Made by a program: the position numbers and the translations under genes. A stretch of 64,000 nucleotides of DNA. Origin: a phage. The stretch lies in the sequence record PX104379.1, one strand, 5' to 3'. The notes beneath the pieces were generated by a model, which was not told the DNA's origin, did no database searches, and saw nothing but the letters and a program-made list of their open reading frames with translations. Of this stretch, positions 32,737-38,114 are shown piece after piece. Within the stretch, counting starts at the first letter, position 1. Each line of letters begins with the position of its first letter.

Positions 32737-32886
32737 TTACTGCATGACTGTGATAACTGTCATGATAACACGTTGAATTCCGAACGCAAGAAGACCTCCT
32801 GCTACGGCTGGAACAACACCTAAACCCGCCAGTAAAATGCTACCAGATACTAATGCAGCGCTTGTAATACCAATGAATGGACTCAT
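32737..32886 (-). CDS. small hydrophobic peptide, 49 aa, hand-called
   Basis: Hand translation MSPFIGITSAALVSGSILLAGLGVVPAVAGGLLAFGIQRVIMTVITVMQ; ATG overlaps the gene 52 stop. Confidence 0.35.
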   Translation of the reverse strand: MSPFIGITSAALVSGSILLAGLGVVPAVAGGLLAFGIQRVIMTVITVMQ

Positions 32887-34211
32887 TTGATTTCCTCTAA
32901 ATCTTTGGTGTATTCTGTAACTACATCAGTAGTTTTCCAATATTCGTTTTCTTCTTTTTTAGCTTTAGCTTCTTCAGCAAGTTTCTTTGCTTCATCAGAA
33001 GTCATATGAAAAATATTCATACCAACTAGTTTATCAACATAAGAAGAATACATCTCAATTTTAGAAAGTTCTTCAGTCAGTTCTTTGCGAGTTTTACCCT
33101 GTACAACGATTTCACCTGAAATTACTTTCTTAATGAAATGTGCCTTGGCAAAGGCTAAACGAAAAACTGACTCAGTTTCTTTGATTTTGTTATCAATTCG
33201 TTTTTGGACATAAGTTTTACGAACTTCAACAAAGTCTTTAATTAAATCAACTACATTATCGTAAACTTGTAGTTTTCCTTTCTCATTAATAACCGTAATA
33301 TTCTGAGAACGACGCTCAATCAACCCGAAGTCTTTCATAATTTTTGCATGGCGTTCTTCTTCATTATCGCTCAAAGAATATTCTTTACGGAATTTAATTT
33401 TAAAGCCAAAACCATGCTCACCACAAGCATCATCCCATGTAATGAAGCCTTTATCTTCAAGTGGGTCTAAGATTTTACTCACATAAGTTTCACGATCATA
33501 CTTATACGGAATCTCAGTGATATGCATTTGAGTTCGTGAAGTAAACTTATATGTTCCACGAATTTCATATTGCCCATCAATTTCAACGACTTCACCACGA
33601 AATTCTGGGAATTCTACCTTCGGTTTAGTTACTTTCTTTCCTTGAAGAGCTTGCAGTACAGCTTTCTTGACAGAAGAAACACTATGAGGAAGAATGTAAG
33701 TTGCATAGCCAGTTGCAATACCGGAAACACCATTAAGAAGAACAGTAGGAATAATAGGCAAATAGAAAGCAGGCGGAATGTGTTCTTTATCTTGATGTAC
33801 CGGAGCATATTCAGTATCTTTATATACGTTATAGAAATTTTTACTTACACGAGCAAAAATATAACGACTTGCCGCTGCTTTTTGAACGGTACGAGAACCA
33901 AAGTTTCCTTGACCATCTAACAGAGGAAAATTATTATTCCAAGTGTTAGCCATCAAAGCACCCGCGTCTTGTGCAGAGTTTTCGCCATGATGATATCCAA
34001 GGTCCGCTACACCACCTGCAATAGAAGCGAGTTTGTGAAACTTATCTTTATTTCCTCGTGCCAAATCAAGAGCTCGAGCAATAACAAATCGTTGAACTGG
34101 CTTAAATCCGTCAATCATATTTGGAATGGCACGATTTTCAACCGTGTACATAGCATAAGCCAATGCTTCATTATCAATGATACTTTTTAAATCGCGATTA
34201 TTCAGTTGCAT
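32883..34211 (-). CDS. 52: DNA topoisomerase II medium subunit gp52 (GyrA-like), 442 aa
   Basis: 442 aa as T4 gp52; GyrA-type N-terminal region. Confidence 0.9.
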   Translation of the reverse strand: MQLNNRDLKSIIDNEALAYAMYTVENRAIPNMIDGFKPVQRFVIARALDLARGNKDKFHKLASIAGGVADLGYHHGENSAQDAGALMANTWNNNFPLLDGQGNFGSRTVQKAAASRYIFARVSKNFYNVYKDTEYAPVHQDKEHIPPAFYLPIIPTVLLNGVSGIATGYATYILPHSVSSVKKAVLQALQGKKVTKPKVEFPEFRGEVVEIDGQYEIRGTYKFTSRTQMHITEIPYKYDRETYVSKILDPLEDKGFITWDDACGEHGFGFKIKFRKEYSLSDNEEERHAKIMKDFGLIERRSQNITVINEKGKLQVYDNVVDLIKDFVEVRKTYVQKRIDNKIKETESVFRLAFAKAHFIKKVISGEIVVQGKTRKELTEELSKIEMYSSYVDKLVGMNIFHMTSDEAKKLAEEAKAKKEENEYWKTTDVVTEYTKDLEEIK

Positions 34212-34215
34212 AAAT

Positions 34216-34356
34216 TTACCATACTAGTGAATGTAGTGCCATAATAACATCAGAAATGAAAAGCACGACTTGAATTAATCCGAACATTATTCCGTAATAT
34301 AACGCTATCAATAAAATAGCAAGGGCTAATGAATAGCCCAAGATTTTCTTAATCAT
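34216..34356 (-). CDS. small membrane peptide, 46 aa (52.1-like), hand-called
   Basis: Hand translation MIKKILGYSLALAILLIALYYGIMFGLIQVVLFISDVIMALHSLVW. Confidence 0.4.
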   Translation of the reverse strand: MIKKILGYSLALAILLIALYYGIMFGLIQVVLFISDVIMALHSLVW

Positions 34357-34504
34357 TTTTTGAACCGATACAAGCGAATAATGATAAAACTACTAATGTC
34401 CCTTGAGCTATTGACTGTAAAAATACTGAAGTTTCTCCAGTTATTATTGTTTCGGCGAATAAAAAGGACCAACAGAAAAAGGCTATACCATGAACAAATT
34501 TCAT
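34349..34504 (-). CDS. ac: small membrane protein, 51 aa, in the ac position (acridine sensitivity)
   Basis: Hand translation MKFVHGIAFFCWSFLFAETIITGETSVFLQSIAQGTLVVLSLFACIGSKND; 51 aa as T4 ac; between stp and 52. Confidence 0.5.
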   Translation of the reverse strand: MKFVHGIAFFCWSFLFAETIITGETSVFLQSIAQGTLVVLSLFACIGSKND

Positions 34505-34511
34505 ATTTTCC

Positions 34512-34592
34512 TCACTGGCGTCCGAAGACGCCTTTAGTTTTAAGATTATTACGATAGAACTGCATCACATGTTCGTTATGGAAATTACTCAT
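34512..34592 (-). CDS. stp: Stp peptide, 26 aa (activator of the host PrrC anticodon nuclease)
   Basis: Hand translation [26 protein letters not shown] matches the T4 Stp peptide as I recall it; ATG overlaps the ndd stop. Confidence 0.8.
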
Positions 34593-35083
34593 TAATATGC
34601 CTGCAAAACAAATTTAAAGTTATCAGCCAACATACGGTTCATTTCTTCAAGTGTTTGATACTCAGAATGATGATTACGAGTAAACGCCAAAGCTAACTGA
34701 CCTTTACCAAATCCTGTCGTCAGAGGTTTCATCTTAGAAGCAGGCAGATAAAACACTGTGTATACTATATTGTTATTTGCAATAGTACGCGCAAGTTGAG
34801 ACCGGCGTTGACGAATATGACTTAGAACTGCGCTGAATCCTTGCTTAGAACGCTGATTACCCACATAAAATCGTGCAGATACGCATGAACCATCGAATTC
34901 ACTTACTAAAAAGTAAAATCCAGGTTTAGATAAAATATCTTTATGCGGAGTTCCCAAAAACCACTCACCACCCTTGATTGTACCAATAACAGTTGCGCCT
35001 GCATTGTTCAGATCAGTAACAGTCATATATTTCATATTAATTTCCTCTAAATTATTTTCTACTCCAAGGCCGCATGAATACAC
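34592..35083 (-). CDS. ndd: Ndd nucleoid-disruption protein (likely start at internal MKYMTVTDL)
   Basis: Recognised sequence [35 protein letters not shown]. Confidence 0.85.
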
Positions 35084-35095
35084 ACGGCCATTAAA

Positions 35096-35311
35096 TTAAT
35101 CGTCGCAGTCGACGCTCAATTCCCAAAACTCTTCTACAGTATAAGTTTCAGTATCATTTTCAATACAGAAACGTTCATTACTGTTATTTGCTAAAGTAGC
35201 ATTAACTGTCGGTTTCTCGCTAGTGCTCTTAAGAGGTGAAATACGAATTAACTGATCACCGTTATCTAAACAGAAAATTTCACCAACTTTTATATCTTTA
35301 AAGATTTTCAT
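35096..35311 (-). CDS. hypothetical protein, 71 aa
   Basis: ORF track. Confidence 0.5.
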   Translation of the reverse strand: MKIFKDIKVGEIFCLDNGDQLIRISPLKSTSEKPTVNATLANNSNERFCIENDTETYTVEEFWELSVDCDD

Positions 35312-35426
35312 AATTCACCTCAAGGAGTATAAAATCCGAATGCAGTTGTTGACCATCCCATCCAATATGGAAAATTTGCACCAATGTAAAACATAAGAAT
35401 ATAAAACCAAATGTTTAGTAAATTCA

Positions 35427-35624
35427 TCATTTTACACCATTCCAAATTGTTTCAACTACGGATTTTAAACCATTTTGATGAATATCCATTCCGACTACTG
35501 CCATCAAATAGATTCCAACTACAACTGAACCTAAGGCAAAAATCAGCATAAAAATGAATAAAACCGGAAAAATATTATCGAAAAACCATTCAATAAATGT
35601 AAAAGCACTGCGTTTACGCTTCAT
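35427..35624 (-). CDS. small membrane protein, about 65 aa
   Basis: ORF-track ORF trimmed to the Met preceded by a GAGGAAA Shine-Dalgarno; two hydrophobic helices. Confidence 0.5.
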   Translation of the reverse strand: MKRKRSAFTFIEWFFDNIFPVLFIFMLIFALGSVVVGIYLMAVVGMDIHQNGLKSVVETIWNGVK

Positions 35625-35631
35625 ATTTTCC

Positions 35632-35745
35632 TCACATAAATCCAAAGTAAACGTTTAATACATCAATCATTAAAACGATTGGGAATATACTCAAAACTAT
35701 TAGTATTATAACTACATTCCATATAGCTTTAACAATCTTTTTCAT
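35632..35745 (-). CDS. small membrane peptide, about 37 aa
   Basis: ORF-track ORF 35632..35880 trimmed to the internal Met preceded by GGAGG; an early promoter lies inside the longer ORF. Confidence 0.45.
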   Translation of the reverse strand: MKKIVKAIWNVVIILIVLSIFPIVLMIDVLNVYFGFM

Positions 35746-35769
35746 TTTCTGTTCCTCCGTAGTTGATAG

Positions 35770-35820
35770 GGTAATAGTACCACGGAAGAACAGTCTTGTA
35801 AACAGCTTTTTTAAAAATAT
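35770..35820 (-). promoter_or_regulatory. T4 early-type promoter
   Basis: Plus strand gtaatagtacc ... 16 nt ... tgtaaaca plus A/T-rich upstream tract. Confidence 0.45.
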
Positions 35821-35988
35821 TCGTAATAAATGTGAATACCAACCACTACCGCTGAAACCTGTGCAACCCACCACGCACAAGCAATAAGTACAGAATTCAA
35901 AATTTTCATAATAACCTCATCACAAAAGTAAATGTTAAACAAATTACTGGAATACTAATTAACCAAACAAAACACCACCATAATGAAC

Positions 35989-36270
35989 TCATAATTCAAT
36001 CTCAGCGATTTTCATTTCATTACTATTAATAGCCTCTTTAAGACTATCTGAAAGAATTACATTCCAGTGGTCATTCATATGACCATTAACTAAGCGTGTA
36101 ATTTCTTCAGGAGTTGAAAAATAAGGCTGATCAGACTCCCAATGCGATAATCCTAAGCGAGTATAAATCATGCCTTCATCATCGCTCGAATATTCAACTG
36201 ACACAAACTCATCAGTTATTTTATGTTTAGCGTAATAAAATTTAAATTTCATTTTATTCTCCAAATCCAT
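35989..36270 (-). CDS. hypothetical protein, 93 aa
   Basis: ORF track; early promoter upstream. Confidence 0.55.
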   Translation of the reverse strand: MDLENKMKFKFYYAKHKITDEFVSVEYSSDDEGMIYTRLGLSHWESDQPYFSTPEEITRLVNGHMNDHWNVILSDSLKEAINSNEMKIAEIEL

Positions 36271-36284
36271 ATCAGTTGATAGTT

Positions 36285-36335
36285 GTATAATACCACGGTC
36301 CTTGTGGTATGTAAACCGTTTTGTGAAAATTTTTA
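36285..36335 (-). promoter_or_regulatory. T4 early promoter
   Basis: Plus strand gtataatacc ... tgtaaaccgttttgtgaaaatttt; near-identical to the promoters at about 16240 and 32645. Confidence 0.5.
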
Positions 36336-36890
36336 AATGGAAAGATACCAGCCGTTGTAGTTGCTTTTTCTTACAACCTTACGAAGGTCTTCTCTATCAC
36401 CGATGAACTTCGGAGTGTACTGGATGACACCTGGATGAATTTCTTTAGTGTTGAATATAATTATACAGTCCGCGACCTGGTGATTTAGAATGGGCCCTAG
36501 ATTTATTCCAGAACCATATGGATACTCTCCGCTGCATCCCGTTGTTACCGAAATCCAACGCGAGTCAGTTTGATGTGTCTTAACTTCTACACGGAGCCCA
36601 CAGTATTTTGGATGTGCTAAAACATCCCATGCATACGTGTACGGATCATCGGCATCTTCTTGACCTTTGTTAACATATCCACTCAACCAATCTGCTACCA
36701 CATACTCGGCATACACAGCAATACGGCATCTTTCGATAACTTCTGCCTTATCCTGATTTGGATTTTGTTTTAAAGAGTATCTTGCAGTATCAGCAATTTT
36801 GGCCTTCATTTCACTAGTCAAGTCACTGTTAGATAGTGTAAATGACGGAATCTGAAATAGTCTCTGCAAACCCGGATTCGTTTTCTGCAT
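36333..36890 (-). CDS. denB: endonuclease IV (DenB)-like protein, 185 aa
   Basis: 185 aa as T4 DenB; located between ndd and rIIB (D region). Confidence 0.7.
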   Translation of the reverse strand: MQKTNPGLQRLFQIPSFTLSNSDLTSEMKAKIADTARYSLKQNPNQDKAEVIERCRIAVYAEYVVADWLSGYVNKGQEDADDPYTYAWDVLAHPKYCGLRVEVKTHQTDSRWISVTTGCSGEYPYGSGINLGPILNHQVADCIIIFNTKEIHPGVIQYTPKFIGDREDLRKVVRKSNYNGWYLSI

Positions 36891-36926
36891 TTAAACTTTC
36901 CTTTATGTCGAAATCATAATTTCTCT

Positions 36927-36952
36927 TAAAACAAAAGGGCCGAAGCCCTTAT
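36927..36952 (-). terminator. rho-independent terminator (AAGGGC-UUCG-GCCCUU plus U-rich run)
   Basis: Plus strand aaaacaaaagggccgaagccctt; same hairpin as at 37162. Confidence 0.6.
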
Positions 36953-37147
36953 TTATTTGAATTGTGCAATTCTTTTCTCTAAACATTCAGCATAAGATTT
37001 CATTGAGATGAACTGTGAAAGTAGCAGTTCTTGCTCAACTGCACTAACCGTTAGAAACTTTGTGCTTTCTAAAAATTTACTCAGTGCATTAATTTTGAGC
37101 ATTAATTGATCGTATTCTTCTTTTACTCGTGCTTGATAACCTAACAT
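36953..37147 (-). CDS. hypothetical protein, 64 aa (D-region ORF between rIIB and denB)
   Basis: ORF track; flanked on both sides by the same GGGCCGAAGCCC hairpin. Confidence 0.5.
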   Translation of the reverse strand: MLGYQARVKEEYDQLMLKINALSKFLESTKFLTVSAVEQELLLSQFISMKSYAECLEKRIAQFK

Positions 37148-37159
37148 AATTTTCCTTAG

Positions 37160-37178
37160 TTAAGGGCCGAAGCCCTTA
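37160..37178 (-). other. stem-loop overlapping the rIIB stop codon (same hairpin as at 36936, no U-run)
   Basis: Plus strand aagggccgaagccctt overlapping the TAA of rIIB. Confidence 0.5.
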
Positions 37179-38114
37179 TTTAAATTGTTCAGTAACGTCT
37201 TCAACTACTTCGTATTGGCAGGTACGCATTTTAGCATCGTTGTAATCAATCGGAATTGATACTACATCGCGTGGATGTACTTTAACTTTTACAACTCGGC
37301 TGGTTGAACCACCGAAGTGACGAATATAAGATTTAGAACACACATGCAGACCACGAGAACAAGTTTGTGTATCATCGTCATTCACACGAGTACGTGGCAT
37401 TTTAACTACTTTACCAGGACTGTTATCAAAGGTGTTTGAGTGACAGTCAAAGTAATTGCTGCGAACTACTTTCCAAGCATAGAAGTAACCATCTTCTGTA
37501 ATTTCAATATCGTTTGCTACCAAGAAATCAAAGAGTCGAGATACCGCTTTTTGGCTTGGGTTTTCCAGCAGATTTTCCAAGAACGGAAAATAAAATTCAA
37601 AGTTTTCGCCTTTTTCCATCGAGTCAAGAATACGATCAACCAAACCAGACCGCAATTCGATATTTTGATAGAACAAGCTTCCACCTTCAATTCGAACATC
37701 GCCGGAAATATATTTTTCAACAGCACGGCGAACATTAATTTTTTGTGCAGCTTCTTCCAGCTTATCCGCTACAAGCAGATTAAGAATTTCCTGGAAGTTT
37801 GAATGAGTATTAGGAGTTGCGTTATAAGTTACACCGTCAACAGTAATTGAAATGAATTTTTTAGAAGCATTCCAAATAATATCAGATTTAGCAACTGGAG
37901 CAATAACTGCATCGCTATTAACTTTAACTGTAATATCACCGCTAATAGTAACTTTAGAGCGTTTAGCTTCTTCAGCATTTTTCAAAACACGACGGATTGT
38001 GTCAACCGATACACCTTGCCAATCAGCCAATTCCTGTTGGGTGTAATTACCACTTGAATACAGTTTAACAATTTCAGCTTGTTCGTTTTTGGTCAGGCAT
38101 TTAATATTGTACAT
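37176..38114 (-). CDS. rIIB: RIIB protein, 312 aa
   Basis: 312 aa starting MYNIKCLTKNEQAEIVKLYSSGNYTQQELADWQG, recognised as RIIB. Confidence 0.95.
   Translation of the reverse strand: MYNIKCLTKNEQAEIVKLYSSGNYTQQELADWQGVSVDTIRRVLKNAEEAKRSKVTISGDITVKVNSDAVIAPVAKSDIIWNASKKFISITVDGVTYNATPNTHSNFQEILNLLVADKLEEAAQKINVRRAVEKYISGDVRIEGGSLFYQNIELRSGLVDRILDSMEKGENFEFYFPFLENLLENPSQKAVSRLFDFLVANDIEITEDGYFYAWKVVRSNYFDCHSNTFDNSPGKVVKMPRTRVNDDDTQTCSRGLHVCSKSYIRHFGGSTSRVVKVKVHPRDVVSIPIDYNDAKMRTCQYEVVEDVTEQFK

Follow-up and report, generated by a model that had tools for sequence, protein, structure and literature searches.

Conserved small genes between gene 52 and denB of an RB51-like Tequatrovirus, several with predicted membrane-peptide products

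The analysed window, a 64 000-nucleotide stretch of sequence record PX104379.1, derives from a T4-like phage of the RB51-like type within Tequatrovirus. Between gene 52 and denB, its minus strand carries a tightly packed, operon-like succession of small genes (Table 1). Except for an 87-aa ORF, all of these genes are known from T4 (NC_000866), and all are present in the RB51 annotation. The segment very probably represents a compact run of early genes in which seven of the products are small hydrophobic peptides. The minus-strand ORFs now identified as 52.1, ndd.2a and ndd.4 lie exactly where the initial annotation had placed them, and the Stp and 51-aa ac-like frames that it named are both present. 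The same annotation was imprecise in placing a frame near 35311..35420, where the actual gene is ndd.2, and the pair 35881..35985 corresponds to no ORF, the genes there being ndd.5 and ndd.6.

Table 1. Features of the gene 52–denB segment (positions in the window; dN/dS among relatives)
Feature	Position	Strand	Product or description	Signal, family or location	dN/dS
52.1	34216..34356	-	46-aa membrane peptide (predicted)	Pfam DUF7396, phrog_3595	0.14
ac-B	34349..34504	-	51-aa predicted two-helix hairpin membrane peptide	GAGGA SD, phrog_2501	
stp	34512..34592	-	26-aa basic soluble peptide	PF08133; 100% identity to T4 Stp	0.09
Hairpin GGCGUC-UUCG-GACGCC	34517..34532	-		Within last stp codons, directly 5' of ac SD	
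ndd	34592..35035	-	Nucleoid disruption protein, 147 aa	Short-patch variant, common to RB51 and ESh31	
ndd.1	35096..35311	-	71-aa acidic soluble protein, net charge -8	GAGGTGA SD, phrog_2183	0.12
ndd.2	35320..35427	-	35 aa, uncharged, 12/35 residues aromatic	phrog_4135	0.11
ndd.2a	35427..35624	-	Intact 65-aa form	GAGGA SD, Pfam DUF7248, phrog_2401	0.09
ndd.4	35632..35745	-	37-aa predicted single-pass peptide, MKKIVK + 21-aa TM	GGAGGA SD, phrog_3098	
T4-type early promoter	35774..35802	-	TTTACA-N17-TACTAT with TG extension	Upstream of ndd.4	
ndd.5	35811..35909	-	32-aa hydrophobic peptide	GAGGT SD, phrog_5011	0.05
ndd.6	35906..35992	-	28-aa hydrophobic peptide	phrog_8851	0.15
87-aa ORF	35989..36252	-	Acidic, soluble, RB51ncORF272c type	phrog_2390	0.15
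T4-type early promoter	36287..36315	-	TTTACA-N17-TATTAT with TG extension	Between denB and 87-aa ORF	

All ten peptides were assigned to PHROG or Pfam families by HMM matches. The product of 52.1 matches DUF7396 over residues 1–46 of 46 (78.3 bits, cut-off 27) and phrog_3595 (E=8e-25), Stp matches PF08133 (75.3 bits, cut-off 25), and Ndd.2a matches DUF7248 (71.4 bits, cut-off 27) and phrog_2401 (E=6e-30). Full-length PHROG matches were obtained for Ndd.2, Ndd.4, Ndd.5 and Ndd.6 (E 1.6e-17 to 3.6e-26), with T4 synteny retained. Against PDB sequences, ndd.1 and the 87-aa ORF gave chance-level matches alone (E 0.4–0.7). Gene 52.1 sits just upstream of gene 52, the topoisomerase gene, and is encoded on its strand; every distant locus that has a gene 52 anchor shows this position.

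Gene order, strand, sizes and junction architecture are the same as in T4 (NC_000866 / AF158101) and RB51 (FJ839693). DNA identity to RB51 is 97.2% over the whole block, and peptide identity to T4 is 92–100% for 52.1, stp, ndd.1, ndd.2, ndd.4, ndd.5 and ndd.6. The window differs from T4 in carrying ac-B in place of ac-A, in its shorter Ndd variable patch, in an intact 65-aa ndd.2a where the T4 reference has ndd.2a plus ndd.3, and in the presence of the 87-aa ORF, which is absent from T4 and of which at least two allele types exist. The split in the T4 reference results from a 1-nt deletion that is missing in a resequenced T4. In addition, an ATG at 35430, upstream of the ndd.2 start, is not conserved, being ATA in four loci. 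Likely errors in the T4 reference annotation are the ndd.3 entry and the starts assigned to ndd.2 and ndd.4.

The initial annotation had noted good Shine-Dalgarno (SD) sequences at several of the small ORFs; an SD sequence (GAGGA, GGAGGA, GAGGT or GGAG) or an overlap with the preceding stop codon is found for every gene. Stop/start overlaps of the ATGA, TAATG and TGATG types are seen. Overlap occurs at five junctions, the remainder being gaps of 7–8 nt: stp begins on the ndd stop (TAATG), 52.1 overlaps the end of ac by 8 nt, ndd.2 overlaps the ndd.2a stop (TGATG), and ndd.5 and ndd.6 start within the stops of ndd.6 and the 87-aa ORF, respectively (both ATGA). The hairpin at the end of stp has no T-run after its stem on the coding strand; the scan scored the plus strand as terminator-like.

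Early promoters had also been proposed, and two of the T4 type are present in the region. The pattern TTTACW-N14-TGN-TAYWAT has 10 matches in the window against 0.03 expected, all on the minus strand, and two of these fall within the small-gene region. The promoter upstream of ndd.4 is conserved among close relatives, in the corresponding place. Both sequences fit the T4/PST PeSL promoter consensus, TTTACW-N17-TAYWAT (PMC4122927), and, like PeSL elements, they flank a cassette (the 87-aa ORF, ndd.6 and ndd.5) that varies between phages; exchange of ndd.4/.5 is cited in the same paper, which also treats the region as a recognised hotspot of shuffling. The distance from the upstream stop codon to each promoter is only 8–17 nt. 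The scan reported no minus-strand stem-loop adjoining either promoter, and for this reason they were not labelled as full PeSL elements. An Rfam scan of 34000–37200 (E<=1) returned no RNA families. In T4, RNA-seq places 52.1, ac, stp and ndd.2 to ndd.6 in the early class, while the proteome column reads 'none' for the block peptides (PMC9697503 supplement).

The initial annotation described the products as mostly hydrophobic. This holds for 52.1, ac, ndd.2, ndd.2a, ndd.4, ndd.5 and ndd.6, but not for Stp, ndd.1 or the 87-aa ORF. The hydrophobic products have GRAVY values of +0.6 to +1.9; uncharged stretches of 21–35 aa occur in all of them except ac, which has two shorter ones (15 and 24 aa). 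The hydrophobic segments show a positive-inside charge pattern, and Ndd.2a combines an MKRKR N-terminus with a hydrophobic segment of about 30 aa and a conserved polar tail (...GLKSVVETIWNG). On these sequence features, all seven are predicted to be small membrane peptides (28–65 aa). The labels given in the T4 annotation ('outer membrane' for Ndd.2, Ndd.5 and Ndd.6; 'periplasmic' for Ndd.2a) were not retained, because these peptides of 28–65 aa, dominated by one uncharged stretch of 25–35 aa, are too small to hold a signal peptide and a mature domain. They have the look of old localisation predictions, and an inner-membrane location appears more plausible for the four. Ndd.5 carries an L-I-A-C motif at residues 8–11, and the leader before the motif is only 10 aa.

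Transcription of the run would start from two or more early promoters on the minus strand, with ribosomes moving from gene to gene by means of strong SD sites or of overlaps between stop and start codons. Judging from their charge distribution, the seven hydrophobic peptides would most likely enter the inner membrane of the host early after infection, each forming a single helix or a short hairpin, for the most part with its N-terminus inside; this orientation in the inner membrane is predicted for 52.1, ndd.2a and ndd.4.

These tiny reading frames are real, conserved phage genes under purifying selection, orthologous to annotated T4 genes. Lack of conservation in close relatives had been named in advance as grounds for discarding them; instead, the frames are intact in 14–16 of 16 close relatives (and that of 52.1 in 24 loci), with dN/dS of 0.05–0.15 in the annotated frames versus values from about 0.2 up to 11 when the frame is shifted, a ratio that has no power for ac (one close homologue) or ndd.4 (4 variable sites). 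The shifted frames, serving as a control, are riddled with stop codons. Between four and eight small TM ORFs are positionally conserved in 18 loci, where Ndd identity falls to about 51%, and most of the peptide families recur at the same locus in distant T4-like genera, remaining recognisable in those with 51–64% Ndd identity. Homologues of ndd.6 occur in JS98-like, moha-like and other genera, while ndd.5 is restricted to Tequatrovirus. Sporadic frameshifts affect ndd.5 in one locus (L047) and ndd.6 in another (L005), indicating that single genes can be lost. It could be argued that such short ORFs are non-coding, mere chance open frames in the AT-rich spacer of a hyperplastic region, since T-rich codons yield hydrophobic residues through composition and the frames are omitted from many GenBank annotations. 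The substitution pattern already effectively refutes this, and the near-universal integrity of the frames, the persistence of the families across genera and the SD or overlap at each gene also speak against it. The stop/start overlaps and short gaps would also suit ORFs that serve merely to relay ribosomes and shield the early mRNA down to ndd and gene 52, the peptides themselves being irrelevant. T4 even retains an 8-codon remnant of the deleted 87-aa ORF, whose end still overlaps the start of ndd.6 as ATGA. Selection has acted on the amino-acid sequences, however, and peptide motifs are kept across genera whose DNA is past alignment, which makes a pure relay role very unlikely.

Small membrane proteins of the AcrZ type in E. 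coli bind and tune large transporters. The block peptides resemble these in size (about 30–65 aa), in their predicted inner-membrane helix and in having no enzymatic domain; Ac has been proposed in a preprint to act on AcrAB-TolC. Experimental phenotypes among the block peptides are confined to Ac and to the non-membrane peptide Stp, the anticodon nuclease activator, which according to the literature acts on the EcoprrI/PrrC system. Ac sensitises infection to acriflavine (bioRxiv 10.1101/2025.06.30.662393; PMC13250531), and a block of AcrAB-TolC efflux is the authors' hypothesis (bioRxiv 10.1101/2025.06.30.662393). None of the block is required in laboratory hosts; the sa-delta-9 deletion halves burst size and abolishes the stimulation of phospholipid synthesis after infection; the products of ndd.1 to ndd.6 are described as unknown (PMC6071114). 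The queried genes do not appear in the main text of the CRISPRi-ART paper or of the HIDEN-SEQ preprint. We tentatively suggest, at somewhat less than even odds, that the remaining peptides work broadly as Ac does, as accessory factors that bind and adjust complexes in the inner membrane, or the lipid metabolism, of the host and that matter only in certain hosts or conditions. T4 Imm and Sp are exclusion proteins that act at the inner membrane, and some of the peptides could instead be superinfection-exclusion or inter-phage competition factors there. Early expression (PMC9697503 supplement), membrane character, dispensability in single infection (PMC6071114) and a presence/absence pattern and allelic turnover of the kind seen in conflict genes are consistent with this, but the literature consulted reports no exclusion phenotype for the sa-delta-9 deletion and most of the peptide sequences are highly conserved, not diversifying, so that such a role seems unlikely. 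It is likewise improbable that some inhibit, or accidentally trigger, host defence systems, as Stp does with EcoprrI/PrrC: the genes are accessory and host-dependent, share a block with Stp and lie in a shuffling hotspot (PMC4122927), but the main text of a T4 transposon screen is silent on ndd, denB, stp and 52.1. The part in host interaction or exclusion that the initial annotation gave to these peptides is plausible for those besides Stp and Ac, and goes beyond the present evidence; exclusion by block peptides is shown neither by this analysis nor in the literature found.

The observation is correct yet ordinary, and its value as a discovery is modest because the genes have been annotated in T4 for decades. 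It does demonstrate, through substitution patterns, that frames of 28–37 aa are genuine coding genes, though they are often omitted or mislabelled in T4-like genomes. They are easy to miss, as had been predicted, with stp, 52.1, ndd.2 or ndd.6 left out of many GenBank records. The block is tied to acridine sensitivity and phage-induced phospholipid synthesis, and the window gives no special handle on what its membrane peptides do.

At the nucleotide level, ndd.4 is unusually conserved, with 4 variable sites and no variable third positions, and synonymous change is nearly absent across about 495 phages; amino acid identity in other genera is 61%. RNA folding of the ultra-conserved block gave z = -2.3, compared with -1.3 for a control block, which is too weak to support an RNA structure. 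A second function of ndd.4 at the RNA or DNA level may be entertained, though we think it rather doubtful.

The ac gene of the window is, from sequence comparison, a paralog (ac-B) and not an ortholog of T4 Ac. It shares with T4 Ac (ac-A) the length of 51 aa, the slot between stp and 52.1 and the predicted two-helix layout, but it is only 38% identical over 40 aa (BLASTP E=2e-7), whereas it is 90% identical to RB51 ac; its match to phrog_2501 has E=2.7e-22. Five invariant columns (W, T, V, Q, Q) are common to both paralogs, and the Gly altered by G38R, which confers acriflavine resistance in T4 (bioRxiv 10.1101/2025.06.30.662393), is also present in ac-B. The acriflavine-sensitivity phenotype is known for the T4/T2-type ac-A only (bioRxiv 10.1101/2025.06.30.662393), and ongoing work on Ac covers only one of two paralogs. 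Since relatives of ac-B are found in Mosigvirus, JS98-like and other genera, ac-B might be the older form and ac-A a young Tequatrovirus-specific duplicate, and phages with ac-B alone may therefore differ from T4 in acridine/efflux behaviour or host membrane target; this is a speculative reading and, in our estimate, somewhat improbable. Within the window, ac-B forms a sharply delimited divergent cassette. It is the minority ac paralog, and the T4-type ac-A is missing from the window. The two lie side by side in tandem in phage Aplg8.

The minus strand of window positions 32883-38114 represents the gene 52-rIIB segment of a T4-like phage, in which every ORF could be named by comparison with the RB51 and T4 annotations. 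The small genes between gene 52 and denB are genuine and make up a tightly coupled early operon, mostly encoding hydrophobic peptides. This cluster is an already known feature. The 2.3-kb stretch around it matches 572 phage records, of which 470 span at least 80% of its length, the top matches being RB51 and RB68 at 97.2%. The initial annotation had placed a cluster of small hydrophobic peptide genes here, which is confirmed well beyond chance. Three of its coordinate pairs are exact; an approximate 35311..35420 is corrected to 35320-35427, and no ORF fits 35881..35985, which straddles ndd.5 and ndd.6.

Features of the gene 52-denB region and related sites in other phages (positions are those of the window unless a relative's locus, L-number, is named)
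Feature	Position	Strand	Product or pattern	dN/dS
52.1	34216-34356	-	46 aa	0.14
ac	34349-34504	-	51 aa	
stp	34512-34592	-	26 aa	0.09
ndd	34592-35035	-	147 aa	0.08
ndd.1	35096-35311	-	71 aa	0.12
ndd.2	35320-35427	-	35 aa	0.11
ndd.2a	35427-35624	-	65 aa	0.09
ndd.4	35632-35745	-	37 aa	
ndd.5	35811-35909	-	32 aa	0.05
ndd.6	35906-35992	-	28 aa	0.15
87-aa ORF (RB51ncORF272c type)	35989-36252	-	87 aa	0.15
denB	36333-36890	-	185 aa	
Early promoter upstream of ndd.4	35802-35774	-	pattern match	
Early promoter upstream of 87-aa ORF	36315-36287	-	pattern match	
ndd.2a/ndd.3 split site	35619-35624; L002 3049-3129; L052 2802-2999			
ac paralogs	34349-34504; L049 350-674			
Extra family 1	ndd-52.1 interval of distant phages		about 53 aa; ..FIELI.AIVC..CFF.G.W.P..	
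Extra family 2	ndd-52.1 interval of distant phages		about 57 aa; ends ..FERL...CGV.K	

All ten small products have full-length PHROG family matches (E 1e-17 to 1e-46), and three lie above the Pfam cut-off: 52.1 (DUF7396), Stp (Nuclease_act) and ndd.2a (DUF7248). The frames are clearly conserved in relatives, being intact almost throughout 16 close Tequatrovirus loci, with lone frameshifts in ndd.5 (L047), ndd.6 (L005) and ndd.2a (the T4 reference). The Nei-Gojobori dN/dS ratios of the annotated frames (see table) were compared with those of the two shifted frames, which contain stops and whose ratios range from about 0.2 to 11; the method is without power for ac, with one close homologue, and for ndd.4, with four variable sites. 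In all 18 of the more distant T4-like loci (Ndd identity about 51-64%), the denB-gene 52 interval contains 4-8 small ORFs that have TM-like segments, and recognizable relatives of 52.1, ac-B (the divergent paralog of ac discussed below), ndd.2, ndd.2a, ndd.4 and ndd.6 recur. Distant T4-like phages also carry two extra small membrane-peptide families between ndd and 52.1 that are not in the window (listed for L010, L011, L013, L015, L024, L025, L028, L030 and L036). GenBank annotation of relatives is inconsistent (L039-L047, L052): stp, 52.1, ndd.2 and ndd.6 are often uncalled, and some small genes, and even ndd, are misnamed, for example as 'naphthalene 1,2-dioxygenase' or 'sugar ABC transporter permease'.

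Every start has a good Shine-Dalgarno (SD) sequence or overlaps the upstream stop. The SD is GAGGA for ac, ndd and ndd.2a, GGAGGA for ndd.4, GAGGT(GA) for ndd.1 and ndd.5, and GGAG for the 87-aa ORF. Overlaps are of the ATGA, TAATG and TGATG types, or 8 nt for 52.1, and the remaining junctions are gaps of 7-8 nt. A scan of the 64-kb window for the T4 early-promoter pattern (TTTACW-N14-TGN-TAYWAT) gave 10 exact matches, spanning 3527-53603, against 0.03 expected. All 10 are on the minus strand, consistent with a long leftward early/middle transcription region. The two within the cluster are kept at equivalent positions in close relatives, T4 included. The region is a known cassette-exchange hotspot tied to early-promoter elements, and exchange of ndd.4/.5 has been described (PMC4122927).

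The N-termini of the 52.1, ndd.2a and ndd.4 products are basic (MIKK, MKRKR and MKKIVK, respectively) and precede 21-31 uncharged residues, so these products are predicted to be N-in single-pass or tight-hairpin inner-membrane peptides. The ndd.2a product has a conserved polar tail of 19 aa (...GLKSVVETIWNG). In the product of the window's ac, ETIITGE links two predicted hydrophobic helices; ndd.2 has no charged residues and 12 aromatics among its 35, and ndd.5 and ndd.6 each have one hydrophobic stretch. Stp (net +3), ndd.1 (net -8) and the 87-aa product (net -8) are soluble. The labels 'outer membrane' and 'periplasmic', taken over from the T4 annotation, are at odds with the small size of these peptides, which leaves no room for a signal peptide.

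In T4, 52.1, ac, stp, ndd.2, ndd.2a, ndd.3, ndd.4, ndd.5 and ndd.6 belong to the early RNA-seq class, and the last table column reads 'none' for these genes, which apparently stands for the lack of a classification at protein level (PMC9697503 supplement). The T4 deletion sa-delta-9, spanning 52.1 through denB, still gives a burst 50% of wild type, but phospholipid synthesis is no longer stimulated after infection (PMC6071114). Ac renders infection acriflavine-sensitive; the authors of a 2025 preprint propose membrane insertion of the peptide and impaired AcrAB-TolC efflux (bioRxiv 10.1101/2025.06.30.662393), and PMC13250531 repeats the proposal. Stp is annotated in T4 as a 26-aa peptide acting on the EcoprrI/PrrC system. 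A literature search found no function for the other peptides, and the review PMC6071114 gives none for the ndd.1-ndd.6 products.

By analogy with the proposal for Ac, the peptides might insert into the host inner membrane minutes after infection and act there in an accessory way, modulating host membrane complexes or lipid metabolism, a reading that we put forward tentatively. They may matter in some hosts or conditions only, which would fit their dispensability in the laboratory, sporadic loss and family turnover between genera. The initial interpretation, host-interaction or exclusion factors, holds in part: the genes are real, conserved and early, but that some members are exclusion factors is unlikely, as is an anti-defence role for some, and direct support was found for neither. 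The accessory-modulator reading is preferred.

In the window, ac is a divergent cassette with sharp boundaries: compared with 15 of 16 close relatives, its nucleotide identity is 41-57% and that of the flanks 94-100%. The product of this ac shares 38% identity with T4 Ac (E=2e-7) and 90% with the ac product of RB51. On sequence comparison, ac resolves into two paralogs, ac-A (the T4 type) and ac-B (the window's type). The window, RB51, RB68 and Sf23 have only ac-B and T4 only ac-A; Aplg8 has both in tandem (stp, ac-B, ac-A, 52.1). In Mosigvirus, JS98-like phages and other genera, ac belongs to the ac-B type. The ac-A sequences cluster tightly, at 80% identity or above, and account for 459 of about 495 Tequatrovirus records with the locus, so that genomes with ac-B only are a minority of roughly 7%. 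The survey in the Ac preprint reported hits at 93-100% nucleotide identity only (bioRxiv 10.1101/2025.06.30.662393), and probably did not see ac-B for this reason.

Just after the ndd.2a start, one G is missing from the T4 reference (NC_000866/AF158101; ATGAA-CGT versus ATGAAGCGT), and the frame is thereby split into a truncated 'ndd.2a' and the annotated 'ndd.3'. A T4 clone sequenced independently (OL964735.1) has the G and the intact 65-aa ORF, which makes the split either an error in the reference or a stock mutation; the ORF is also intact in all other relatives. ndd.3 is probably an artefact and not a gene. The starts annotated in T4 for ndd.4 (MEEQKMKK...) and for ndd.2 (the first of its two ATGs) look wrong: they are not conserved and are missing from the window and several relatives. 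The upstream Met of ndd.4 is Thr in the window (region 35745-35760), and the first ATG of ndd.2 is ATA in four relatives (region 35425-35430). The shorter ndd.4 (37 aa) and ndd.2 (35 aa) are likely the true products.

The acidic 87-aa ORF, which lies between denB and ndd.6, has been lost from T4 by a deletion between short repeats (L002 3494-3622). An 8-codon remnant survives there, its terminal ATGA still joining it to the ndd.6 start. L044-L046 carry a second type of allele (about 69% nucleotide identity), and no relative was found in the PDB. Nucleotide conservation of ndd.4 and the 5' end of ndd.2a is unusual. Block 35550-35750 has no variable third-codon positions across 17 loci and at least 95% identity in 495 of 495 matching records; for an adjoining 201-nt control block, 230 records fall below 95%. 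An Rfam search gave no hit, and RNA folding of the block a weak signal (z = -2.3); neither accounts for the conservation.

Ndd has a variable internal patch (34850-34900), with the short form VSEFDGSC in the window, RB51 and ESh31 and VSKLDGRPFSNPC in most relatives (12-15 nt indel; local identity 65-74%). Stable UUCG-tetraloop hairpins lie on the coding strand at 34517-34532, 36935-36955 and 37162-37182. One is within the last stp codons, just 5' of the ac SD, and denB.1 is flanked on both sides by a perfect 21-nt repeat (AAGGGC-UUCG-GCCCUU plus tail).
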